DNA from: a virus
Lineage: Duplodnaviria > Heunggongvirae > Uroviricota > Caudoviricetes
Direction: 5' to 3' (one strand)
IMG/VR virus record: IMGVR_UViG_2630968533_000001
DNA length: 47,560 nucleotides
The notes beneath the pieces were generated by a model. It searched no databases and was not told the origin of the DNA. It saw only the letters and a list, made by a program, of their open reading frames with translations. The translations under genes and the position numbers were made by a program. This document shows, piece by piece, positions 2,247 through 45,441 of the stretch; the stretch's first letter is position 1, and the number at the start of each line of letters is the position of its first letter.

Positions 2247-3416
2247 TTATGGTCTGCTCTTCTGTGCCAGCTTATCAGCACATGTTTTTATCAGATCCTG
2301 TAGTGTCCTGGCTGGCAGGTTTGCATCCAGTACGCTGAGTATGCTGTTGTGATCTGCTTGGTCGACTACTTTGCCTGTCGGTGGTAGTAGCTTGAGCTGA
2401 GGATTCAGGTTTTCGTCAAAGCTGATAAGTGCTCTGGCGTTTCTGAGCAGATCAAGAAGTAAGGCTGATATCACATTTTCCTGAGTCATTGCTGACAGAT
2501 TTAGCGCCGCTTTGGTTTTCCCTGTTGCCTTGTCAAACTCCTTGATTAGTTCCTTCCTGTAGTTCGGTTCCGTTAATAGCCGATTATGCTCTGTTGCCGC
2601 GCGGATAATCGTTTTTTCCTGGTACAGTCGTTTAGCCAGATCACGCTCGTACTGTGTTTTTAACACGCTGCTGATAGCGTTAAAGGCTTCAATGTAGGCC
2701 AGCTTGATATCTTTCACGCCTGGACCGTCGATACTTTCCATGAGCAAGGTAAATCCGTCTTTTGTCATGCGATAGATTGTTATTTCGCGGTCGCTTCCTT
2801 CCAGCGGTCGTTGCTCTTTAAAGAAATGACGTGCCGCAGCTGTGCGAGGAATGCGTAACGCATCGATGGCCATAACGATGGAATTGTTTGTGGTGCTGAA
2901 TGCCTGGGCAACATCGGCTGAGGTTGTGAGTGGCTCGTTGTTGCACACCTTAATGTAAAACATCGGTTTGGCGTTGAGCGTATCGACAACCTCACGAGCA
3001 TTGTTTGGCGAGACGGTTACGGTCGCGGCCGTTTGTGTGTTCTGGCTGAAATAGCAGTCTTCCAGCCGTTCGAACACATCCCAAGCCTGATCGGTTTCAA
3101 GCATTTTGGCGTGACGTGCAGCCCCGCGTTCTGTCCAGAGAATGAGGGAGCGGGCTTTCGGGGAAATTTGTAACCCTCTTAAAGATGGTTGCACATTTTG
3201 TGAGTGACTTAAAGTCACTCGCAAAGTTTTTAACTCATCGCCAGCCACTTTGAAAAAATGCTTTCCTTCAATAAAGCGGTTTGCGTTACGTGAGTAATTT
3301 TTTTTGATGTTATCAACGTCTGTGCCGTATAGCTTTGCCAGTAGTTCAGTAGTGATAACGGGGATCTGGTTATGCAGGATAGGCTGTAGGGTGTTAACGG
3401 TCGGAAGCGTTTTCAT
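2247..3416 (-). CDS. Phage antirepressor (N-terminal ORF6N-like and Rha-like domains)
   Basis: ORF track; N-terminal motif ITTELLAKLYGTDVDNIKKNYSRNANRFIEGKHFFKV typical of ORF6N antirepressors; central PLTTSADVAQAF segment Rha-like; start overlaps the stop of the upstream small ORF (ATGA). Confidence 0.65.
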   Translation of the reverse strand: MKTLPTVNTLQPILHNQIPVITTELLAKLYGTDVDNIKKNYSRNANRFIEGKHFFKVAGDELKTLRVTLSHSQNVQPSLRGLQISPKARSLILWTERGAARHAKMLETDQAWDVFERLEDCYFSQNTQTAATVTVSPNNAREVVDTLNAKPMFYIKVCNNEPLTTSADVAQAFSTTNNSIVMAIDALRIPRTAAARHFFKEQRPLEGSDREITIYRMTKDGFTLLMESIDGPGVKDIKLAYIEAFNAISSVLKTQYERDLAKRLYQEKTIIRAATEHNRLLTEPNYRKELIKEFDKATGKTKAALNLSAMTQENVISALLLDLLRNARALISFDENLNPQLKLLPPTGKVVDQADHNSILSVLDANLPARTLQDLIKTCADKLAQKSRP

Positions 3417-4840: not shown

Positions 4841-5509
4841 TTACGCGGCAGTAGTCAGAGCCTCAAGCTGGTTGATAATCCCCTGAATAACGTCGTCTGC
4901 CTTTTTGCGTGGCGCAACGTATGAGCATTCAATGAGGCTTAAGCCCTTATCCTGAGCTTTGCTCAGAGCTGGCTTGTGGGGAATGTACTTATCGACAACA
5001 AAGTATGGCGTATTAGCCAGGTACTCTTGGGCTTCAATGTAGTCGGCTTCGTTTTCAGCCGCGCCTGAGAACACCATGCAAATTTTCTTGATTGGCACAC
5101 CCTTTTTAACGATGCCGTGAGCTGTGTTAACGGTGGTTTCCAGGTCATCGGTAGAGAATCTGGTTGGCAAAATAACCATATCCAGAAATTCAGAGAGCTT
5201 CGGTACTGATTCAGATGCGTAGGCACCGCCATCGACGATAACCAGGTCGTATACTTCTGATTCGATGATTTTCTGGACTTGTGATGGCGTGCCGCACGGC
5301 TGCGCCGCGATTGCAGGTTCGATATTGTTGGCCATTCTGCGTTGTACCCAACGCGTTACCGTTCCGTTAAGCACATCCATATCGATCAGGCATACATTCC
5401 AGCCGGCCTTTGCATAAGCAACTGCTAAAGCACGGGCAATTGTTGATTTGGTTACGCCGCCTTTTCCGTTGAAAATACCTACAGAGATAGTCATTTGTCG
5501 AGACTCCAT
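4841..5509 (-). CDS. parA: ParA/ParF-type partition ATPase
   Basis: ORF track; deviant Walker A GKGGVTKST near the N-terminus; about 220 aa, typical of small type Ib ParA proteins. Confidence 0.85.
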   Translation of the reverse strand: MESRQMTISVGIFNGKGGVTKSTIARALAVAYAKAGWNVCLIDMDVLNGTVTRWVQRRMANNIEPAIAAQPCGTPSQVQKIIESEVYDLVIVDGGAYASESVPKLSEFLDMVILPTRFSTDDLETTVNTAHGIVKKGVPIKKICMVFSGAAENEADYIEAQEYLANTPYFVVDKYIPHKPALSKAQDKGLSLIECSYVAPRKKADDVIQGIINQLEALTTAA

Positions 5510-12465: not shown

Positions 12466-13177
12466 CAGCACAGCAATTAACTATCAGGCACTACGTGAGA
12501 TAGCAAAACAGGCAACACAGGGCGAATGGGTCGCATTTATTTCGCCGGGCAAACACGGCACGTACGCTGTGCACACACCAGGAGATAATCATCACGGAGA
12601 TATTGTCGACTGGCCAGGATTCGACGAACAGAAAAACGCAGAGAACAACGCTCGTTATATCGCAGCTTTCAACCCAGAAGTAGTGCAGGCGTTGCTGAAT
12701 GAACGGGAAGCACAAAGCAAACGCATTGCTGAACTGGAGGCCAGTCGTGCGGCGCTGGCGGCGGAGAATGCAGGGCTTAAGGCGATATGTGATGACCGTC
12801 GCAGGTTCATCATGAATGGGGTGCAGACGGGTTATATCAAGGTGCCAACAGCGGAAACAGCTCCAGACCTTGAGACAATTCGCATTGCTATATCACCACA
12901 AAAGCCCATTCCAGCCACCGATGCTTTCCTGGCTGAAATACGTGCGGAGGCACGCAACGAGGGGATTAACTACACCGCAAGCCGTCTTGCTGCTGCGTTC
13001 AATCACGGATTTATCAATAAGTCTTTGCGTGAAGTTTTCGACGTTACACGCATGATTTTGTCAGCGAAAGAAGAGTTGGCTAATGAACCGCACCCGATTG
13101 ATGGCCTGTCCGGTGAATATGCGGAGAAATCTCTTGAGGAGTGGGCGGAACAGATTCGTAAAGGAGGCGACAAGTGA
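12458..13177 (+). CDS. Ead/Ea22-like protein
   Basis: ORF 12413-13177; likely start ATG 12458 after SD GGAG; N-terminal NYQALREIAKQATQGEWVAF plus coiled-coil, typical Ead/Ea22-like signature as recalled. Confidence 0.5.
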   Translation: MTNSTAINYQALREIAKQATQGEWVAFISPGKHGTYAVHTPGDNHHGDIVDWPGFDEQKNAENNARYIAAFNPEVVQALLNEREAQSKRIAELEASRAALAAENAGLKAICDDRRRFIMNGVQTGYIKVPTAETAPDLETIRIAISPQKPIPATDAFLAEIRAEARNEGINYTASRLAAAFNHGFINKSLREVFDVTRMILSAKEELANEPHPIDGLSGEYAEKSLEEWAEQIRKGGDK

Positions 13178-13365
13178 GCAATTTAGCGAGGCTACGAGCA
13201 GTATTTAGATATTCAGAGCGGGTAATGAGGCACATACAACCGAAAACATGGCAGAAATTGGATTCTGTGGGAGTTAAGTTGGAGAAGATTACTCAACTTA
13301 AGCAGTGGAATATCGGCGAATATTATGGAAGTCCTGGTCGGGATGTTCAGTTGGTAAAAAGTTGA
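13174..13365 (+). CDS. Hypothetical small protein (63 aa)
   Basis: ORF track. Confidence 0.35.
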   Translation: MSNLARLRAVFRYSERVMRHIQPKTWQKLDSVGVKLEKITQLKQWNIGEYYGSPGRDVQLVKS

Positions 13366-13511
13366 ACATTGCTTTTTTATTGATCGATTAACCACGATAT
13401 GAAGGTTTTTTTATGGGGAAACCTTGTTTTAGGTGGTAACTGGGTGTAGTGTTTCATTTAACGTAGTAAAACTGCGTTAAGCGATTACCGCGTAATTTGT
13501 TGCTTTATGAA

Positions 13512-13542
13512 GCCCTGCCTTTTTCGGCGGGGCTTTTTTTTT
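13512..13542 (+). terminator. Intrinsic terminator immediately upstream of the holin gene (tR'-like position)
   Basis: 8-bp stem GCCCTGCC/GGCGGGGC (one G-U pair) followed by a T9 run, 14 bp before the holin start. Confidence 0.5.
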
Positions 13543-13555
13543 AACGAGGATTTCA

Positions 13556-13951
13556 ATGTCAGCAGAACCAATTTCCGGTACGGCCGTTGCTGCTGGTGGC
13601 CTGATGGGTGCCAGCGTTTTTGGTATTGCAACTGGTATTGATTACGGCGTTGTATTCGGGGCATTTGCTGGCGCTGTTTTCTATGTTGCTACAGCGGTGA
13701 ATATTAGCCGTCTCAAGCTGATTGGCTATTTCTTTACATCGTTCATTGTTGGAGTGATTGGAGCGCCGTTAGTTGGCTCATTTCTTGCCAAATGGACCAG
13801 CTACAACGATCGACCTCTTGATGCGCTTGGTGCGGTTATTGTGGCTGCATTGACAATTAAAATCCTCACGTTCGTAAACAGCCAGGATCTCGGTAGCATC
13901 TTTGGAATGCTTTCCCGCTTACGTGGAGGGGGTTCAAATGGTAAGCAGTGA
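13556..13951 (+). CDS. Holin-like membrane protein (131 aa, multiple TM segments)
   Basis: ORF track; Gly/Ala-rich hydrophobic segments; first gene of the lysis cassette. Confidence 0.5.
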   Translation: MSAEPISGTAVAAGGLMGASVFGIATGIDYGVVFGAFAGAVFYVATAVNISRLKLIGYFFTSFIVGVIGAPLVGSFLAKWTSYNDRPLDALGAVIVAALTIKILTFVNSQDLGSIFGMLSRLRGGGSNGKQ

Positions 13952-15331: not shown

Positions 15332-15407
15332 GGCCCCTTAGCTCAGTGGTTAGAGCAGGCGACTCATAATCGCACGGTCATCGGTTCAAATCCGGTAGGG
15401 GCCACCA
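15332..15407 (+). tRNA. tRNA with CAT anticodon (tRNA-Met or lysidine-type tRNA-Ile2-like)
   Basis: Cloverleaf read by hand: acceptor GGCCCCT/AGGGGCC, D-arm GCTC/GAGC, anticodon loop CTCATAA (CAT at 15365-15367), T-arm ATCGG-TTCAAAT-CCGGT, encoded CCA; G1-C72 paired so not an initiator; 5' half resembles E. coli ileX as recalled. Confidence 0.85.
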
Positions 15408-15714: not shown

Positions 15715-16302
15715 ATGGAGGAAATTGCATTGTTTAATCTGATTTATGCAGATCCCCCCTGGGAATACAAAGACAAGTGTAAGGATGGGAATCGTGGAGC
15801 TGGTTTTAAGTATCCAACGATGAAAGCTGAGGAGATTGCTCGTATTCCTGTCTGGCAGCTTGCTAATCCTGAATCGTGTTTGTTGGCCATGTGGTGGGTT
15901 CCGACTCAGCCAGAAGAAGCGTTGCTGGTGGTGAAAGCATGGGGATTCAGGCTTATGACCATGAAGGGCTTCACATGGAACAAATGTGGTAGCCGACAAC
16001 CAGATAAGCTGGTGATGGGGATGGGGCATATGACTCGTGCAAACAGTGAAGATTGCTTGTTTGCGGTAAAAGGCAAATTGCCGACCCGCCTTGATGCGGG
16101 GATCATTCAGTCGTTTACATCGCTTCGTCTGGAGCATTCTCGGAAGCCTGATGTGGTTCGTGACAAGCTGGTAAGGCTGTTAGGTGATGTTCCTCGTATT
16201 GAGCTGTTTGCTCGCGGTGATTTACCTGATGGTTGGCATGGCTGGGGCAACCAGTGCAATGGAGGTATCCAGTTGCATGATGCTCTCTGGCAAGTGGCAT
16301 AG
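15715..16302 (+). CDS. MT-A70 family adenine DNA methyltransferase
   Basis: ORF track; catalytic DPPW motif in LIYADPPWEYK near the N-terminus. Confidence 0.8.
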   Translation: MEEIALFNLIYADPPWEYKDKCKDGNRGAGFKYPTMKAEEIARIPVWQLANPESCLLAMWWVPTQPEEALLVVKAWGFRLMTMKGFTWNKCGSRQPDKLVMGMGHMTRANSEDCLFAVKGKLPTRLDAGIIQSFTSLRLEHSRKPDVVRDKLVRLLGDVPRIELFARGDLPDGWHGWGNQCNGGIQLHDALWQVA

Positions 16303-16882: not shown

Positions 16883-16905
16883 ACCGTAACGATAACGAAC
16901 AACGA

Positions 16906-16931
16906 GCCTCGGCAATTGCCGGGGCTTTTTT
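16906..16931 (+). terminator. Rho-independent terminator
   Basis: 8-bp stem GCCTCGGC/GCCGGGGC with AATT loop, then TTTTTT. Confidence 0.5.
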
Positions 16932-17602: not shown

Positions 17603-17634
17603 AGCCTCGCGGTGTCGCGGGGCTTTTTATTTTC
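17603..17634 (+). terminator. Rho-independent terminator
   Basis: Stem AGCCTCGCG/CGCGGGGCT with GTGT loop, then TTTTTATTTTC. Confidence 0.5.
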
Positions 17635-18289: not shown

Positions 18290-18913
18290 ATGACAAAACA
18301 ACTTAATGTGGTTTCTTTACCACTTTCTGTGTTGATTGGTTATGAAAAGAACGCTCGCACACACTCCGTGGAGCAGGTAGATCAGATTGTTGCCAGCATA
18401 CAGGAGTACGGATGGACTAATCCGATCCTGATAGACGAGAACAACGTTGTAATTGCTGGTCATGGTCGAATTGCTGCGGCCACTCAGTTGGGGATGGATG
18501 ATGTTCCCTGCATTGTTCTGGCTGGGCTAACGGAGAATCAGAAGAAGGCATATCGTCTGGCCGACAACCGTATTCCGCTGAATGCTGGTTGGGATGAAGA
18601 GCTGTTAAGCGCGGAGCTTGCAGATCTTGCGGCCGATGATTTTGCTCTGGACTCAATTGGTTTTACTCAGCGCGAACTGGATAACTTATTGAGTGCGGCG
18701 GTCTACGATGACACAGAGGGTATGGATATCCCATTTGAGAAGGATGAGGCCAAATCAGGCGTAAAAGTTCAGTACCTGTCATTTGGAGGTCATAAAATCC
18801 CGGCAACGGATGAGGAAGCGGATCGTTTTGACTGCGCGGTGTCTCGTTATGTTGATGATAATGGCAGCTATATCGGATTTGTATCCGCATTGCTGGCTGG
18901 GGAGGTGTGCTAA
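18290..18913 (+). CDS. ParB/Srx-like N-terminal domain protein
   Basis: ORF track; ParB-like nuclease-domain pattern with AGHGRIAAA; paralogue of the gene at 21579. Confidence 0.7.
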   Translation: MTKQLNVVSLPLSVLIGYEKNARTHSVEQVDQIVASIQEYGWTNPILIDENNVVIAGHGRIAAATQLGMDDVPCIVLAGLTENQKKAYRLADNRIPLNAGWDEELLSAELADLAADDFALDSIGFTQRELDNLLSAAVYDDTEGMDIPFEKDEAKSGVKVQYLSFGGHKIPATDEEADRFDCAVSRYVDDNGSYIGFVSALLAGEVC

Positions 18914-20286
18914 TGCTTCACCTCAATTACGACATAACGCACCTACGCGGCGCGGAATATAACCCGCGTTTTATCGGTGAAGATGATCTTGCGAGGCTGG
19001 CGGAAAGCGTCAGGGAGCTGGGGCTTGTGAAGCCATTGATAGTGCGCGGCGATTTGCTGGTGGCGGGACACCAAAGGACGAAGGCGCTACGTAAGTTGGG
19101 AATAACGCGTGCTGCGGTGTATGTGTTGCCCTGTGAAACGACGGTATACGACGAAGTACGGTTTAACCAACTGCATAACGGAACGGATTTTGATAGCGGA
19201 GATGAGCGTTGCAGGGTGTCCGGTCTGGAAGATAAGCATGGTTTTGTTCAGGTATCGGCAAGCCAGATCTCAGGCAATATGCGCGCGAAAATGGCATATG
19301 TTCGAAAGAACATAGCGGAACTGGTTATCAAGTATGGTCCGTGGGGTGGTTGTGTTGCGACTCAGTCTGGCGAGGTTATTCACTGTGCTCAGTATGCATT
19401 AGCAGCGAAGATGACGCGTACACCGCTAACGGTGTTTGTGATCCCTGATGTTGAGAAGGAAAAATACCAAAGTTATCTGAATAAAACTTATGGTGTATTT
19501 GAGTATTCTCATCTGGAGAAAACAACATACATCCAGACGTATGCGCAGCTTATGCGGTTGCGTAATGGTGGCAGCCTGAAATCAAACCTGTATGAGTCGT
19601 TGATCCTCCCGATCATTGCCAAGACGCCAAGAGGAATTGATTTTGGTTCGGGGCAGGGAGACTACGCGCGAATGCTCAGGGCAAAGGGATATAACCTGCA
19701 TGATCTCGAGCTTTTCCGCCGTAAGGGCGCTGGAAACACTCTGGATAGGACCGCAACAAACCGGATGATTGATACGCTGGTGGACGACTTAAAAACGCGA
19801 GGGCGTTACGACTACGTGATTTGCGATAGCGTTTTGAACTCGGTCGATAGTGTCGAGGCTGAATGGTCCGTTCTGACGGTTCTGAAAGGCTTGTGTAAAG
19901 CTGGTGGGTCAATATTCTTTTCTGGCCGTAGCCGTGGAGAGCTGGAAACAGTCCTGAAGCAAACACAAGCTGCGAGTTCCAAAAGCCGGCTTTATTTTAT
20001 TGATCATAACGGTTTTACCGCGTTGTACCGGAAGGGGCACTGGTTTTACCAGAAGTTTCACTCTGATGAGGAAGTGAAGCAGTTGTGTCGTGTACATGGT
20101 TTCAGGATTAAGCGGTCAATATTCAACTGTAAGAGCTGGTATTTGCACGTCATTAACGATGATTCCCTTAGTTGGGCGAGTCTGGAGAAAGCTGTTCGTT
20201 TTGAGTTTGAGTTGCCGTTGCCTGGTGGTTCAACAATCGGACGATCTGATGATGTGCTGGCGGCTTTCCGGCCGTTGATTAAGTAG
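18907..20286 (+). CDS. ParB-like N-terminal domain fused to a class I SAM-dependent methyltransferase-like domain (459 aa)
   Basis: ORF track; N-terminal LIVRGDLLVAGHQRTKALRKLG ParB-like; C-terminal GIDFGSGQGDYARML (motif I-like) and RYDYVICDSVLN; no DPPY/NPPY DNA-methylase motif seen. Confidence 0.6.
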   Translation: MLMLHLNYDITHLRGAEYNPRFIGEDDLARLAESVRELGLVKPLIVRGDLLVAGHQRTKALRKLGITRAAVYVLPCETTVYDEVRFNQLHNGTDFDSGDERCRVSGLEDKHGFVQVSASQISGNMRAKMAYVRKNIAELVIKYGPWGGCVATQSGEVIHCAQYALAAKMTRTPLTVFVIPDVEKEKYQSYLNKTYGVFEYSHLEKTTYIQTYAQLMRLRNGGSLKSNLYESLILPIIAKTPRGIDFGSGQGDYARMLRAKGYNLHDLELFRRKGAGNTLDRTATNRMIDTLVDDLKTRGRYDYVICDSVLNSVDSVEAEWSVLTVLKGLCKAGGSIFFSGRSRGELETVLKQTQAASSKSRLYFIDHNGFTALYRKGHWFYQKFHSDEEVKQLCRVHGFRIKRSIFNCKSWYLHVINDDSLSWASLEKAVRFEFELPLPGGSTIGRSDDVLAAFRPLIK

Positions 20287-20302: not shown

Positions 20303-21022
20303 GTGGCTGACAGAATTGAGATAAAGATGGATTTTTCTTCTCAGGATATTCAACGACAACTCCAGCGCCTTGAAGAACGCGAATTGCCGTTCGCAATGGC
20401 GCTTGCGGCAACCAGAACGGCAAAGGCTTCTCAGGCTGCGATTAAGAATGAAATTAATCGGGTATTTGACAGGCCCACGCCGTGGATTCAGAACTCTACT
20501 TACGTTTTGGCCGCAAAGAAGGGTGATCCTACAGCCATTGTGTATGCTCGTGAATGGGGAGGAACGCCAGCACCTGTAACGTTGACTCCGCAAATCGAAG
20601 GTGGCCAACGACAGTACAAACGCTCAGAAGGGGCGCTAAGGGCTGGTGGATATTTGCCTAACGGCTGGCAGCTTGCTCCTGGTCCCGGCGCAAAGCTGGA
20701 CAAATACGGGAATATTTCGCGGGGGCAATTACAGCAGGTCTTATCTGGCCTAAGAGTTCAGCGAGATGCGCATCAAAATCGCCGTCAGGGCAAGCCTACG
20801 GAGTTTTTTGTTGTTCGACCTGGTACAAGTAACCCGCTTCAACCAGGCGTCTGGCAGCGCGTTGGGCGGCGTCCTACGTTGATCCTTACGTTTATCCAGC
20901 AACCTAACTATTCGCAGCGTCTTGATTGGCATGGCGTGGCGCTGCGTGCTGGTGAGGATGCGTTTGCTGATGAAGTCACAAAGGCTATTGATGACATTCT
21001 TTCTAAGACCTTCTCTCGTTAA
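20303..21022 (+). CDS. Hypothetical protein (239 aa)
   Basis: ORF track; no domain recognised. Confidence 0.5.
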   Translation: MADRIEIKMDFSSQDIQRQLQRLEERELPFAMALAATRTAKASQAAIKNEINRVFDRPTPWIQNSTYVLAAKKGDPTAIVYAREWGGTPAPVTLTPQIEGGQRQYKRSEGALRAGGYLPNGWQLAPGPGAKLDKYGNISRGQLQQVLSGLRVQRDAHQNRRQGKPTEFFVVRPGTSNPLQPGVWQRVGRRPTLILTFIQQPNYSQRLDWHGVALRAGEDAFADEVTKAIDDILSKTFSR

Positions 21023-21199
21023 TCATCGTGTGGTTGATGGTGTTGTTATGCAGAGTGTATTCACTGTGTTCTGTAGCGTCGCTCGCTGGCTGTCTGTGGG
21101 GGAGCACGAGCATCGTTTCATCGTCCGGCAGAATTGGGTCCTTCTGGCCAAAAGCGTTGGATGCGGGTCATTCGAACCCCGATATTCGGCTAGCTAAAC

Positions 21200-21578
21200 G
21201 TGAAAAAAGTTAGGTTAAAAGTTGCGGTAAAAGAAATTTACTCATCTCATTGAAAAATATCGGGAAAACGTGATTTTTTCTGTATTTGTGCTGGTAAAAA
21301 GAAAGTGGAAAATTTTCTTTTAGATCATCAAGATACGCGCAGATCTTTAACCAATGTGATGTTGTTCTGATAAAAATCGTTATAAATCATGCAAATACAT
21401 CCAATCTTTTAACCAAAACACCATCGCAAGATCCTTTTTACTTATAAAAACTTAATAAAATCAGATAATTATGCTGGTTTGTGTGATTTTTCATGAGTAA
21501 AAAGATCGTCATTTTTCTCTTTTAGTATCAATAAGTTAAACAGTTTTCTTTAACCTGTTGTGTTATGGCGGTTAAAAA
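21200..21578. promoter_or_regulatory. AT-rich non-coding region with an imperfect ~75-bp direct repeat and GATC-containing boxes
   Basis: Matching blocks (GTAAAAAG, TTTTAG, TTTAACC) in 21290-21370 and 21493-21570 offset by about 203 bp; 379 bp without an ORF. Confidence 0.35.
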
Positions 21579-22169
21579 ATGGCTCTAAAAATCGAATATT
21601 TACCAGTCGGTAAGTTGCTCAGATATGCCAAAAATTCACGGACTCATTCAGATGAGCAAGTTGAACAGTTGGTGAACAGTATCCGTGAGTTCGGTTTCAC
21701 TAATCCTGTGCTGATCGATGAAAAGAATGAACTGATTGCGGGGCATGGGCGGCTTGCAGCAGCCGAAATTCTGGAAATGGATAAAGTTCCGGCGATTCGG
21801 TTGAGTAACCTTTCTGAAAAACAGAAGAAGGCTTACAGGATTGCAGATAACAAGCTGGCCTTAAATGCTGGCTGGGATATGCAGCTTCTGGCCGAAGAAG
21901 TCAAAGAGTTAATGGATGATGATTTTGATATTGATCTGCTTGGGTTTAATGATGCAGAGCTTGACGAAATGTTAAGCGATGAACAGCCGCAGGAAGAAGA
22001 CGATAATTCTTCCCCTGTTGTTCAAATTAAGTACCTGGCTATTGATAAAGAACGTATTCCCGCGACGGATATGGAAATTGCATTGTTGCTGGATGTTTAT
22101 CGTCAGTACCACGACGCGCATGAAACGCATGAGGGATTTGTTCAGTATCTTGCTAATGGTTGCAAGTAA
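21579..22169 (+). CDS. ParB/Srx-like N-terminal domain protein
   Basis: ORF track; paralogous to 18290-18913 (shared LIAGHGRLAAA and QKKAYRIADN motifs). Confidence 0.7.
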   Translation: MALKIEYLPVGKLLRYAKNSRTHSDEQVEQLVNSIREFGFTNPVLIDEKNELIAGHGRLAAAEILEMDKVPAIRLSNLSEKQKKAYRIADNKLALNAGWDMQLLAEEVKELMDDDFDIDLLGFNDAELDEMLSDEQPQEEDDNSSPVVQIKYLAIDKERIPATDMEIALLLDVYRQYHDAHETHEGFVQYLANGCK

Positions 22170-22720
22170 TGGCCATCGTCAGTAAGTCAGAGTTTGCCCG
22201 CCGGAAAGGTATTTCTCCGGCAATGGTTACGAAGCTCTGTCGTTCCGGTCGCATTCCAGTGCTGAAAAGCGGCAAGCTGGATTTTGATAAAGCCAGTGCG
22301 GCTTATGAAGCGAGCCGACAGGTTGGTCGTGAGGTATCTGCTGAAAATGGAAAAAGAGGGCATGGGATATCTTCGGAACAACCAGAGTTACCCGCTGATG
22401 ATGCCGGATTAGCTGGTGGTACTTCCGGTGTTGCGGTGCAATTCAACAAGGCTAAGACCGCAGAAAAAATTTATCAGGCAAAGCTGAAACGCCTTGAATT
22501 TGAAGAAAAGGAAGGCTCTCTCATCGCTAAAGATGCGGTCAGGGATGATGCATTTCTGGCAGCTAATGAATTGCGTAGCCGCTTATTTAGTATTGCTCCA
22601 AGAGCAGCTCCCCGTTGTGAAGGCAAAACAGCCAGGGAGATCGAGCGCATTATTGAAGACGAGATTAATTTTGCGCTTCAGGCGCTCCAGGAATCCCGAT
22701 TTATTAAGCAGGAAGAATAA
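22169..22720 (+). CDS. terS: Terminase small subunit
   Basis: ORF track lists a TTG start at 22160; ATG 22169 overlaps the upstream stop (TAATG); N-terminal HTH-like segment; immediately upstream of terL. Confidence 0.6.
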   Translation: MAIVSKSEFARRKGISPAMVTKLCRSGRIPVLKSGKLDFDKASAAYEASRQVGREVSAENGKRGHGISSEQPELPADDAGLAGGTSGVAVQFNKAKTAEKIYQAKLKRLEFEEKEGSLIAKDAVRDDAFLAANELRSRLFSIAPRAAPRCEGKTAREIERIIEDEINFALQALQESRFIKQEE

Positions 22721-22725
22721 ACCTC

Positions 22726-24582
22726 ATGGGCGAAACAGTATGGAGCACCGCTTTTTTCCGTGCGCTTCGCCCTAAATCACGGCTAACTGTTTCCGAATGG
22801 GCTGATAAGTATCGTCATGTAGCGCCGGGAACGTCTCCAGAGCCAGGGCCGTGGCGTACAAGCCGAGTGCCATATTTGCGTGAACCAATGGATGTTATTG
22901 GTGACGCTGATACAGAAACAGTAGTGATGCAATGTAGCTCGCAAATTGGTAAATCCGAATTACAGCTAAATGTTATGGGTTACTTTGCAGATCAGGAGCC
23001 ATCTCCTCAGTTGATGATTTATCCAACGGTAGAGGCGGCTGAGGCTTTTTCAAAAGAGCGTATTGATCCGACGTTCAAATATTCCCCTGGTTTGAAACAC
23101 AAGCTGCATGAAGGGAAAGAGGGGCGCGGTGCAGCCAAAAAGTCCAGCACGACTATACGTATGAAGCATTACGCTGGTGGATATATAGCACTTGTTGGTG
23201 CTAATTCCCCAGCAGGTCTTGCATCCAGGCCAATTCGAATACTGTTAGCTGATGAGATTGATCGTTACGGTGTGACGCAGGAGGGCGACCCACTAAAACT
23301 AGGTATTCAGCGTACTACCAACTTTCATAATCGTAAGAAAGTTTTTGTTTCTACTCCTGTTTTGGAGGAAACAAGCAAAATCCACAAGTGGTTTAAGCTC
23401 TCCGATCAGCGTTACTACCATGTTCCTTGCCCATGTTGTGGCACCATGCAGGTGATGAAATGGTCGCAAGTCAGATGGGATAAGAGCGATTCAGGTGAGG
23501 CGTTACCGGAAACGGCCAGATATGAGTGCTGTGAGTGCGGCGGGATTATGCGCGGATCTGGTAAACCAGACGTTGATTGGTTGGCGAAGGGGGTATGGAT
23601 AGCTGAACATACTGGAGTTAAAGGTATTGTTGGTTTTCATATTAACAGTCTTTACTCCCCGTGGGTTGCATTGTCAGAGCTGGTTGAAGAATTTACGGAA
23701 GCAACCAGAAACCGCGATAAAAATGGATTAATGGAGTTTATTAACCTTAAGCTGGGTGAGCCATGGAAAGAGGATGCTAAAGACGATATCGATCCTGAAT
23801 ACTTGTTGCAACGCAGAATAAGGTTTGAAGAGTTTTTACCAGATGATGTTTTATTGTTAAGTGCTGGTGTTGACGTACAGGACACGTATTTAGTTTGTGA
23901 ATTGGTCGGTTGGGGAAAAGGTAAGGAGTCATGGGGGATAGAATATAAAATATTCCCAGGTGATCCCGCACAAGATGTTGTCTGGAAACAACTTGATGAA
24001 TACTTACTCCGTAGCTGGTCATTCCGTGACGGTCGAAAATTACAGATTTCTTCCGTTTGTATTGACTCTGGTGGGCATTTTACGACAGAGGTATATCGCT
24101 TTACTAAGCCGAGAGAATCAAGGCGAATATACTCTATCAGGGGGCGTGGTGGGGTAGGTTTACCATTTATAGGAAAGCCAAGTAATAATAACCGTGTGGG
24201 TGCTATGTTGTTTAATTTGGGGGTTGATGATGGTAAAGGGACCATCATGGCAAGAATTAAACTACATGATCCTGGTCCTGGTTATATGCATTTCCCATTA
24301 GATTCTGACAGAGGATATGATACCGAATACTTTAAAGGATTATTATCAGAGAAAAAAATATTTGAATATAAAAATGGGCAGACAAAAGAAAAGTGGGTGA
24401 AAGTCTACGAGCGTAACGAGCCTCTTGATTGCCGTAACTATGCAACTGCCGCGATGGAAATTCTGAACCCTAATTTTAACTGGCTTGCCGAACAGGAAAT
24501 GCGAGGTAATGTGTATGTGCAGAACTCGTCAGGTATACGTAGAAGACGCCGTAGAGTTATAAGTAAAGGCGTAACCATATAG
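22726..24582 (+). CDS. terL: Terminase large subunit (lambda GpA family)
   Basis: ORF track; 618 aa with LLADEIDRY-type ATPase motif and lambda gpA-like organisation as recalled. Confidence 0.9.
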   Translation: MGETVWSTAFFRALRPKSRLTVSEWADKYRHVAPGTSPEPGPWRTSRVPYLREPMDVIGDADTETVVMQCSSQIGKSELQLNVMGYFADQEPSPQLMIYPTVEAAEAFSKERIDPTFKYSPGLKHKLHEGKEGRGAAKKSSTTIRMKHYAGGYIALVGANSPAGLASRPIRILLADEIDRYGVTQEGDPLKLGIQRTTNFHNRKKVFVSTPVLEETSKIHKWFKLSDQRYYHVPCPCCGTMQVMKWSQVRWDKSDSGEALPETARYECCECGGIMRGSGKPDVDWLAKGVWIAEHTGVKGIVGFHINSLYSPWVALSELVEEFTEATRNRDKNGLMEFINLKLGEPWKEDAKDDIDPEYLLQRRIRFEEFLPDDVLLLSAGVDVQDTYLVCELVGWGKGKESWGIEYKIFPGDPAQDVVWKQLDEYLLRSWSFRDGRKLQISSVCIDSGGHFTTEVYRFTKPRESRRIYSIRGRGGVGLPFIGKPSNNNRVGAMLFNLGVDDGKGTIMARIKLHDPGPGYMHFPLDSDRGYDTEYFKGLLSEKKIFEYKNGQTKEKWVKVYERNEPLDCRNYATAAMEILNPNFNWLAEQEMRGNVYVQNSSGIRRRRRRVISKGVTI

Positions 24583-43989: not shown

Positions 43990-44469
43990 AAGATAATCAT
44001 GTGACCAATTATTGTAATAATTTTAATGGTATGTTTCTACTGGCTATCCAGCGTGTCTGATACCCAGTAACAAATCGTTAACACAGGTGCAATCAAATGG
44101 TGAGTGTTAAGACTGGCCACTTATTACCAGGTATGAGGGTATGAGTGGCCAGCATTAAATCAGAACAGCCCTTTAACTGAACTGGCCGCGCTGTTAAGGG
44201 ATGATGTCACCTTATCTTTGAAGCCGGACAGCATATTGCTGAACGATGAGTTTACCGCAGGTTTCTGGCTGGGAATCATTGACTGGAGTTAGGCCAGTAG
44301 TATGATGCTCGCAAAACGAGATCCAATTTAGATCCTTTTACTGGTGGATTATCGTTCGATCAGTGAGAGACTTCGTGCATGACCGAAAGTGTTGTGGTAG
44401 AGTTCTCTTAAAACCACGTAACGTGGTTATGATTGTGGGTGTCTGGTTGGAAAGTGACCAGATATGGAA

Positions 44470-44590
44470 ACAAAAAGCCCGCAGATAAATCTGCGGGCTT
44501 CTTGCGACATCCACGGAAAACCAACAATTAACCATGGGCGCCTCGACAACTCCCATTATACGTTGGTTTTCCGTGGACGCAAGAGCGAAC
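44470..44590 (-). ncRNA. CopA-like antisense RNA region (copy-control hairpins in the repA leader)
   Basis: On the minus strand: long stem-loop (44510-44577, arms TCCACGGAAAACCAAC / GTTGGTTTTCCGTGGA) followed by hairpin GCCCGCAG-ATTTA-CTGCGGGC and U-run (44471-44499), the architecture of IncFII CopA antisense RNAs. Confidence 0.45.
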
Positions 44591-44592
44591 AT

Positions 44593-45441
44593 ATGGATAG
44601 ACCAATGCCGTCTCTACGTTCAGCTTACGTTTGTAATTTGTCGCCGGAGTTCCAGCCTCCAAAGCACCATACGCACAAGCTGCCGCTGGTGTTATCTGAT
44701 GCTTTACAGCGCATTAATGGGCGTGATCTTACGTGTGAGGTTGCGTTCTACGTTAATCAACCGTCAGAGCGGAAGCGCCGGATAAACGAGCATCGTCGTC
44801 GGGCGATTAATGCTGTGATCGCTGCGATTTTGCACCATGTAAACATCATTTCTAAGCGGGTTCTGGCCAGTGCTGAGGCGTTGGCTGATTTTTGCGGCCT
44901 GTCTACCGTATCCGAAGCTGGGAACAAGTCTATAACACGCTGTACAAGGGCGTTGTCGCAACTGAAAGCGTTAGGTTTTATTGATTATGAACGTCGCTGG
45001 GATCGGGTGAATAAACAGTATTGGCCAGCGAAAATAGAGATTCGTGATCAACTGCTGGAAACCGTTGGTATTACTGAACAAGCATGGAGACGTGCGGTTA
45101 GCCAGAAACTTAATTACTTCAATGCGAAGAATAGCGAACGGCTTAAAAAAGCGATAACGGAGGCTGATTATAAGCGTATTGTTATTCAGGAGCAGATGGA
45201 GAATGTATGGCGTCAGAGGAAGACGGCCAGAGAGATAAAGGCAAAACAGAAAGCAGCGGAGAGAGCTGCGCGTCTTGTTCGGGAAAAGGGAGAGGCCGAA
45301 CTTCGTCATCAAATCACTAGAGAGGTTAGCCAGGAATTTGCTGATGGCATGTATCCTGGAGCTGACCTTGCATATTTACGATCCCTCGTTGAGCAGCGTT
45401 ATAACAGGTTAAGAAAGACCTGGAAATCACTCCAACATTAA
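44593..45441 (+). CDS. repA: Replication initiator RepA (IncFII RepA1-like)
   Basis: ORF track ORF 44464-45441; core CGLSTVSEAGNKSITRCTRALSQLKALGFIDYE recalled as close to R100/R1 RepA1; start placed at ATG 44593 to match the ~285-aa length of RepA1. Confidence 0.75.
   Translation: MDRPMPSLRSAYVCNLSPEFQPPKHHTHKLPLVLSDALQRINGRDLTCEVAFYVNQPSERKRRINEHRRRAINAVIAAILHHVNIISKRVLASAEALADFCGLSTVSEAGNKSITRCTRALSQLKALGFIDYERRWDRVNKQYWPAKIEIRDQLLETVGITEQAWRRAVSQKLNYFNAKNSERLKKAITEADYKRIVIQEQMENVWRQRKTAREIKAKQKAAERAARLVREKGEAELRHQITREVSQEFADGMYPGADLAYLRSLVEQRYNRLRKTWKSLQH

Follow-up and report, generated by a model that had tools for sequence, protein, structure and literature searches.

What is the function of a gene-free, AT-rich gap that carries two similar blocks of short motifs and stands directly before the packaging genes of a tailed phage? 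The question is raised by positions 21200-21578 of IMG/VR record IMGVR_UViG_2630968533_000001 (Caudoviricetes), a stretch of 47,560 nucleotides which was analysed as a whole and is called the window below. The window is a complete circular phage-plasmid of about 47.5 kb. An earlier note, made from the sequence alone, had described an imperfect direct repeat in this gap and had considered a duplicated late promoter or activator site, a pac site and a lytic origin. Comparison of sequences points to a cohesive-end (cos) site, which is very probably cut at 21166-21177, just left of the flagged interval. The gap itself is probably, as its main function, the arm of this site that is recognized by the terminase, comparable to cosB of phage lambda. 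Features lie on the + strand of the window unless stated otherwise.

The direct repeat is real, and its blocks lie where the earlier note had placed them. They are delimited here as repeat unit 1 (21293-21352) and repeat unit 2 (21496-21555). In a gapped local comparison of 21285-21375 with 21488-21578 the blocks score 22, as compared with 9.4±1.6 for dinucleotide-preserving shuffles, none of which (0/1000) reaches this value. The constant offset that had been claimed is exactly 203 bp at both unit edges (21293 to 21496; 21345 to 21548), with internal indels of 1-2 bp. Without gaps, 39 of 81 positions (48%) match at offset 203, versus 21-41% at the offsets 195-211. The elements common to both blocks are, in order, GTAAAAAG, TTTTCTTTTAG, ATCA..AAG.TA and CTTTAACC. 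The similarity sits in these short motifs and is not that of a recent clean duplication. Two checks had been named beforehand, comparison with shuffled sequence and comparison with related phages, and both favor the repeat. Alignment of the whole gap with itself gives a best score of 30.5, well above that of shuffled sequences (13.4±2.1; 0/300 reach it), and both the likeness of the two units and the positions of the motifs are kept in three enterobacterial lineages. In these lineages the likeness amounts to z = 7.5, 3.1 and 6.1, with orthologous units that are 60-73% identical.

The description of the gap as an AT-rich region free of open reading frames (ORFs), with several GATC sites, was also accurate. 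The G+C content of 21200-21578 is 29.0%, versus 40-55% in the rest of the window. No ORF in it exceeds 24 amino acids, and the small ORFs that are present (up to 24 amino acids) are unconserved. The neighbors are a 239-amino-acid ORF which ends at 21022 on the left and an operon on the + strand which begins at 21579 on the right. Four GATC sites are found in the gap, at 21323, 21342, 21430 and 21504, where about 0.9 are expected by composition; four are reached in 9 of 1000 shuffles, and only two of the four sites are conserved. Over the window as a whole GATC is depleted (130 sites versus 168±12 in shuffles), to which the cos-adjacent gap, with four in 379 bp, is a local exception. The element encodes an adenine methyltransferase of the MT-A70 family (15715-16302). 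A search of 20900-21800 against Rfam at permissive thresholds gave no match. A weak peak of A-tract periodicity at 10.5-10.75 bp was seen without a null comparison, and was not used as evidence.

The ends of the virion genome can be read from deposited records of close relatives. Three plaque-forming phages of Yersinia pestis are 96-99% identical to the window in this region. The records of vB_YpM_41 and vB_YpM_39 start at window position 21166 (GGTCATTCGAACCCCG…) and end at 21165, while that of vB_YpM_44 starts at 21178 (CCCG…) and ends with …GCGGGTCATTCGAAC. The records differ only in which end bears the 12-mer GGTCATTCGAAC, and this is the signature of a 12-nt cohesive end. A homologous 12-mer, GGTGCTCGCGAC, is found at both ends of Vibrio phage vB_VpaM_XM1 (XM1), and at the right end of Vibrio phage X29 minus the last base. 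The putative nicking site (cosN), with the cohesive end GGTCATTCGAAC, therefore occupies 21166-21177 in a conserved core of 21161-21181. The overhang is probably 5', by analogy with lambda and with Acinetobacter phage HFM1 (OR246918), for which an 11-nt 5' cohesive end annotated with PhageTerm stands at the equivalent place. The pac-site suggestion was thus right in pointing to packaging and wrong as to type, in that the records indicate fixed cohesive ends, with the cut just outside the interval that had been flagged. Literature searches for the 12-mers and for the names of the Yersinia and E. coli phages gave no description of this cos site.

Sequence on both sides of the putative cut is conserved over a wide range of hosts. 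The junction TTGGGTCCTTCTGG…GCG/GGTnnnnnCGAC/CCCG…TTCG.CTAGCTA (slashes at the edges of the 12-mer) is common to the E. coli and Vibrio elements, which have the same gene order and are 50% identical in the ParB-like protein and 42% in the small terminase TerS. In alignment, window positions 21134-21199 read TTGGGTCCTTCTGGCCAAAAGCGTTGGATGCG/GGTCATTCGAAC/CCCGATATTCGGCTAGCTAAAC, and XM1 reads TTGGGTCCTTCTGGGCAAAGCTGCAAGGAGCG/GGTGCTCGCGAC/CCCGCGTTTCGTCTAGCTACAA. The conserved block on the left of the cut (TTGGGTCCTTCTGG…GGATGCG, 21134-21165) would form the right end of the virion DNA and is, by position only, a candidate cosQ-like termination element; TTGGGTCCTTCTGG also occurs in XM1. On the right, the spacer that leads from the cut to the first motif (CCCG…TTCGGCTAGCTAAAC…GAAAAAAGTTA, 21178-21212) has the position of lambda I2, and CCCG-N-TTCG-N-CTAGCT within it is kept from E. 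coli to Vibrio. Two further enterobacterial lineages were obtained from an IMG/VR scan with the ParB-like protein (86% and about 79% identity in this protein). Over the three lineages 21134-21177 is 91-95% identical, and 21100-21133 is unalignable. The distance from the cos core to the ATG of the ParB-like gene is 412-414 bp in all 22 of the 22 IMG/VR loci with enough flank. In metagenomic relatives a core of the GGGTCATTC type is kept 90-130 bp before the ParB-like gene. A scan of genome contigs gave only distant relatives, from alphaproteobacteria and from metagenome-assembled genomes.

The putative cut lies just left of the gap, so that the gap occupies the place of cosB in lambda, between the cut and the genes for the ParB-like protein, TerS and a large terminase (TerL) of the lambda gpA type. 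The first gene after the left end (21579-22169) encodes a protein of 196 amino acids with a ParB/Srx N-terminal domain (Pfam ParB_N, 3.8e-08; phrog_620, 4.6e-75). It is followed by the gene for TerS (22169-22720; 183 amino acids; phrog_57, 1.4e-41), the candidate reader of the motifs, which has an N-terminal Cox/Xis-like helix-turn-helix (HTH; 7.5e-05), and by that for TerL (22726-24582; Pfam GpA_ATPase, 7.1e-76; GpA_nuclease, 1.1e-84). A lambda-like set of portal, protease, decoration and capsid genes comes after TerL. The order ParB-like, TerS, TerL is kept in the Vibrio phages, at the left end of their linear records, and in many metagenomic relatives. In a single-sequence AlphaFold2 (AF2) model, residues 1-50 of TerS form a β-α-α-β-α unit with a predicted local distance difference test (pLDDT) score of about 87. 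This modeled unit resembles the winged HTH of Xis, BldC and RacA (target-normalized TM-score 0.59-0.71), with E-values that are not significant. The AF2 model of the ParB-like protein (pLDDT 47) is too poor for its C-terminal half to be judged.

The gap holds eight or nine copies of the motif GGTWAAA(A)G in both orientations, and in conserved islands the motif has the form (G/A)GT(T/A)AAA(A)G. Seven matches to GGTWAAA are found in the gap where 0.30 are expected, and six to GGTWAAAAG (at most one mismatch) where 0.47 are expected, with 0/1000 shuffles reaching either value; these figures are descriptive, because the motif was chosen after inspecting the sequence. Six of the 30 matches in the window lie in 0.8% of the sequence. 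Site a (GGTTAAAAG, 21213-21221) is located at +48 from the left end, 35 bp from the inferred cohesive end, and its island (21210-21222) is invariant in the three lineages. Site b (GGTAAAAG, 21226-21233) coincides with a conserved island at 21226-21232. Site c (GGTAAAAAG, 21293-21301) and the inverted site d (CTTTAACC, 21345-21352, − strand) belong to unit 1, with their centers 51.5 bp apart. Site e (21406-21414, − strand) reads CTTTTAACC on the + strand, equivalent to GGTTAAAAG on the − strand, and is kept as GAGTAAAAAAA in the other lineages. Site f (AGTAAAAAG on the − strand, 21434-21442) is flanked by the conserved GATC at 21430. Site g (AGTAAAAAG, 21496-21504) runs into a GATC which ends at 21507, in an island (21497-21507) invariant in the three lineages. 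Together with the inverted site h (CTTTAACC, 21548-21555, − strand) it belongs to unit 2, and the centers of g and h are again 51.5 bp apart. A weak motif-like sequence, site i (GGTTAAAAA, 21570-21578), precedes the ATG of the ParB-like gene; it is weakly conserved and may be only part of the translation-initiation region.

Both blocks of the repeat are thus the same 60-bp module, composed of a motif on the + strand, an element resembling the IHF consensus and an inverted motif on the − strand. In unit 2 the element TATCAATAAGTTA (21526-21538), a perfect match to the consensus WATCARNNNNTTR, stands between g and h. In unit 1 the corresponding element (21323-21335) stands between c and d, and it matches the consensus perfectly in the lineages L019 and L031. 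A second perfect match in the gap, AATCAGATAATTA (21459-21471), is located between f and g; among four relatives its specified positions are kept and three of its four N positions vary. Both perfect matches to WATCARNNNNTTR in the gap lie between oppositely oriented motifs, and their N positions vary among lineages. An imperfect palindrome of 71 bp (21434-21504; 31-nt arms, 74% complementary), with f and g as its arms, surrounds this middle IHF-like element.

Conservation within the gap follows the motifs. The gap is only 60-73% identical across the three lineages, and the conserved islands in it match sites a, b, c, d, f, g and h. GGTT and GGTA variants are swapped at individual sites between lineages, with positions kept, a pattern which would be expected of binding sites. 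The best-conserved distal block consists of 21453-21480 and 21497-21507, the latter with its GATC, at 70-125 bp upstream of the ATG. The GTTAA core of site a is located at +49, and the first GTTAACAC repeat of Vibrio phage XM1 at +50. This shared position, together with the shared core, makes sites a and b the positional counterparts of the Vibrio array.

In lambda, the three R repeats of cosB are bound by gpNu1, whose winged HTH is dimeric; a bend which IHF makes at I1 brings the inverted R3 and R2 opposite one another, and gpA is thereby anchored on cosN, where its nicks are staggered by 12 bp (PMC4856287). A conserved AT-rich spacer, I2, covers bp 18-50, and cosQ, across the cut, serves termination (PMC4856287). 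The site described here resembles lambda cos in the gpA-type large terminase, the 12-nt cohesive end, the one-sided recognition arm between cut and terminase genes, the position of the first repeat, which follows a conserved spacer with an A-tract and lies some 50 bp from the end, and the conservation of a block across the cut. A further likeness would be that the short repeats run in both directions and that inverted copies enclose an IHF-consensus element. It differs from lambda in several respects. Its TerS cannot be recognized by sequence as similar to gpNu1, GGTWAAA(A)G takes the place of the R sequence, and site and TerS are separated by a ParB/Srx gene. With eight or nine sites and as many as three IHF-like elements, its arm extends over about 400 bp, as compared with three R sites and one IHF site in about 120 bp.

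By this analogy, TerS and IHF probably bind the gap as gpNu1 and IHF bind cosB. The winged-HTH N-terminus of TerS would recognize the motifs, IHF or intrinsic bending would fold the DNA between opposed motifs, and TerS dimers would bridge them, as in the R3-I1-R2 arrangement of lambda. Held at the cut by the assembly of TerS and IHF, TerL would nick the two strands at a stagger of 12 nt. The enzyme would stay on the motif-bearing left end, and packaging would proceed to the right, over the genes of the ParB-like protein, TerS and TerL, until the next cos is reached. Several modules could provide for redundant or cooperative loading.

Other relatives can be set beside this scheme. The Vibrio phages X29, phi 2, vB_VpaM_XM1 and R20L, for which a family 'Weiviridae' has been proposed in a paper without discussion of termini (PMC11432961), share the homologous cos junction, and their first repeat, at +50, has the same GTTAA core. 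They differ in having five direct GTTAACAC/G repeats at +50, +67, +84, +102 and +126 (spacing 17-24 bp, about 140 bp in all) and in lacking the 270-bp AT-rich extension that bears both blocks; no inverted modules or IHF-like elements were noticed in them, though no scan aimed at these was made. In HFM1 an end of the form GG…AC/CCC is followed directly by a homologous TerS (35% identity) and a gpA-type TerL, and GTTAAT-type repeats, including an inverted pair, stand before TerS. HFM1 differs in its 11-nt overhang, in a 180-bp arm, in the absence of a ParB-like gene and in being an integrating phage and not a plasmid. The combination in HFM1 of such repeats with no ParB-like gene speaks mildly for TerS, and against the ParB-like protein, as the factor that reads the motifs.

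Several observations weigh against reading the gap as a cosB-like arm. The ends are inferred from where deposited records begin and end. Twofold symmetry about 21171/21172 involves 10 of 22 positions, which is no more than in neighboring 22-bp windows (10-12). With the TerS model Foldseek found no match at E < 0.5, TerS did not match Pfam Phage_Nu1 even at E ≤ 1, and BLASTP against lambda gpNu1 gave E = 0.4 over 14 residues, i.e., no similarity. A phmmer search of TerS against the sequences of the PDB gave nothing. TerS is therefore not a detectable member of the gpNu1 family, but it may work like gpNu1. The IHF-like element of unit 1 is weak and degenerate in this window, and IHF-consensus matches are not significantly enriched in the window as a whole (9 versus 5.6 expected), the consensus being loose in AT-rich DNA. 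The post hoc choice of the motif, mentioned above, belongs here as well. The plaque-forming phage vB_YpM_44 (OR545055.1) lacks window positions ~21303-21392, 90 bp with AAA microhomology at the junction, and with them site d, two GATC sites and most of unit 1. A viable phage without most of unit 1 means that the modules are at least partly redundant. The deletion was found in none of about 130 other replicons (71 E. coli replicons and 61 PLSDB plasmids). Plaque formation can thus do without these modules, which are nevertheless maintained in nature. Finally, in Vibrio, Acinetobacter and metagenomic relatives the first gene follows the end after only about 100-170 bp. The remaining ~270 bp, with both blocks, is therefore an addition of the enterobacterial lineages and may do something else. 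This distal part could instead be there for the control of transcription or for the ParB/Srx proteins, and the ParB-like protein, not TerS, could be the binder of the motifs.

Transcription control is the first of these alternatives. Here the motifs would be operator or activator sites and the distal gap a regulated promoter for the operon of ParB-like, TerS, TerL and head genes, either dependent on an activator or repressed in the plasmid state; cos would be confined to the first ~70 bp, and such a promoter could coexist with cosB. An AT-rich gap of 379 bp before the structural operon is the classic place for a promoter, the best-conserved distal block lies 70-125 bp upstream of the ATG, and both the short arms of the relatives and the viable deletion phage are in keeping with it. 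The late promoter or activator of the earlier note found no counterpart in the scans: no sigma-70-like site was found in 20900-21700 versus 2.0 expected, in a scan that is blind to other promoter types, and there is no site of the P2 Ogr type (TGT-N12-ACA). An intrinsic terminator scan of the same region found none between the upstream gene and the gap. Moreover, the motif is the same at sites a and b, close to cos, which correspond in position to the Vibrio repeats, and the whole cut-to-ATG length of 412-414 bp is constrained. A promoter as the main role of the gap is thus unlikely.

The layout of terminators elsewhere in the window bears on how this operon may be expressed. Strong + strand intrinsic terminators are located at 13509-13536, directly upstream of the holin gene (13556), at 16904-16927 and at 17603-17624. 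Since there is no strong + strand terminator between 17624 and the terminase genes, read-through across cos can express the operon, as in lambda. By analogy with lambda Q and tR', the position of the terminators between early and structural genes suggests late control of the antitermination type. A lone exact GGTAAAAAG is found in a small inverted repeat (GTTCAGTTGGTAAAAAGTTGAAC) at 13340-13365, in the 379-bp gap before the lysis genes (13177-13556), and is the only exact intergenic copy of the motif outside the cos arm. As a late-activator motif it is isolated, without a cluster, and was not taken as evidence.

That the motifs are instead loading sites for the ParB/Srx proteins is likewise unlikely. 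The proteins would act as a packaging accessory, in end protection or in DNA condensing, and TerS would read only the cos-proximal DNA. The idea draws on genomic position. The ParB-like gene heads the conserved order described above from E. coli to Vibrio and beyond, directly after the left end, and two related genes stand just before the right end, so that three genes with ParB/Srx N-terminal domains flank cos (18290-18913, 18907-20286 and 21579-22169). Two of the three are paralogues of 48% identity (phrog_620), and the third is a fusion of ParB_N with a methyltransferase. ParB_N is also found in the first or second gene of many unrelated phage records (Lactobacillus phiLdb and c5, Rhodobacter RcFrancesLouise, Microbacterium phages), a placement that suggests a general, unstudied link to genome ends or packaging. 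What speaks against the idea is that the protein has the N-terminal domain of ParB only, without a recognized HTH, that the motifs are short, non-palindromic and unlike parS, and that HFM1 has its GTTAAT-type repeats before TerS with no ParB-like gene in the genome.

A more specific proposal starts from the cosB-like arm and regards the 270-bp enterobacterial extension as a switch which decides whether the plasmid form is cut and packaged. It is improbable, if suggestive in places. Sites f and g are kept as GTAAAAAG(G)ATC in all three lineages, and they form the palindrome arms around a conserved IHF-like element; the element has adenine methyltransferases of its own and ParB/Srx paralogues on both sides of cos. 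Terminase loading would then be gated by the methylation state or by a ParB-type clamp, and if this were true, it would be a packaging control without counterpart in lambda.

It is very unlikely that the repeat is functionless, i.e., a decayed duplication or a compositional accident in an AT-rich spacer. The ungapped identity of only 48% and the survival of one phage without most of unit 1 would fit such an origin. Against it stand the observed score, which none of 1000 shuffles reaches, the likeness of the units and the retention of every motif position in three lineages that are only 60-73% identical, and the absence of the deletion from the 71 E. coli replicons and 61 PLSDB plasmids.

An origin of lytic or plasmid replication in the gap, in which the motifs would be short iterons beside AT-rich DNA for unwinding and Dam sites, would agree with its 29% G+C, its repeated short motifs, its excess of GATC and the replication of the element as a plasmid, and is nevertheless barely credible: the only initiator is an IncFII-family RepA (44464-45441) encoded 23 kb away, a type which in R1/R100 acts in cis at an origin just downstream of its own gene and is not known to use iterons, no DnaA box with at most one mismatch is found in 21100-21600, the motifs are of 8-9 bp in mixed orientation and not direct iterons of 17-22 bp, the region is 35 bp from a cohesive end, and two of the four GATC sites lack conservation. 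Near repA itself, a search for iterons of RepA yielded no clear result.

Phage P1 offers a further comparison, since Dam-methylated GATC hexamers control cleavage at its pac site. Like P1, the element is a phage-plasmid with GATC in the putative packaging recognition region and with phage-encoded adenine methyltransferases. It is unlike P1 in its gpA-type terminase (not PacA/PacB), in fixed cohesive and not headful ends, and in having two conserved GATC sites only and no TGATCA/G hexamers. A P1-type pac site was rejected, as no TGATCR hexamer occurs in 21100-21600 and the records point to fixed ends.

The phage-plasmid nature of the window is evident from its relatives and its genes. It is 100% identical to the 47,558-bp circular plasmid p5 of E. 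coli 254D-1 over the 521 bp compared (record coordinate = window + 910). The gap region was found in 71 of 5,426 complete E. coli genomes, and 70 of the 71 replicons are plasmids of 47-57 kb. The E. coli reference strain ATCC 25922 carries a 48,488-bp plasmid of this type. In PLSDB 61 such plasmids were found, all of them non-mobilizable, from E. coli, E. fergusonii, E. albertii, Salmonella and Klebsiella. The RefSeq annotation of the matching plasmid contains a complete tailed-phage gene set along with repA, parA and a toxin-antitoxin pair. In the window the plasmid genes are the IncFII-family repA already mentioned, parA (4841-5509, − strand) and a RelE/ParE toxin-antitoxin pair, and the virion genes encode a lambda-like head and a contractile tail. 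Two details of annotation were also noted. The single tRNA, at 15332-15407 and with the anticodon CAT, is assigned to Met by ARAGORN and is tRNA-Ile in RefSeq, which implies the lysidine-modified Ile2 type. An unbroken ORF of 389 amino acids with ORF6N and Rha domains is located at 2247-3416 (− strand), where RefSeq splits the matching stretch into a Rha regulator and an ORF6N pseudogene fragment.

An element of this kind, with a one-sided cos arm, short repeats and IHF sites, is already textbook knowledge and well understood, and the finding mainly fills a gap: the site of this family was previously undescribed in the searchable literature. Its variant features are a TerS that is not of the gpNu1 type, an arm which is about three-fold longer and has duplicated modules, a ParB/Srx gene before TerS, and conserved sites that bear GATC. 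A known cos site provides the correct genome start for annotation and a minimal fragment for cosmid or transduction vectors, and it aids prediction of the DNA that the particles can carry from one host to another. With the natural 90-bp deletion, the duplicated modules make up a series that could serve to ask how many docking modules for the small terminase are required by a lambda-like motor. An unstudied accessory factor is suggested by the ParB/Srx gene that is conserved between cos and TerS.

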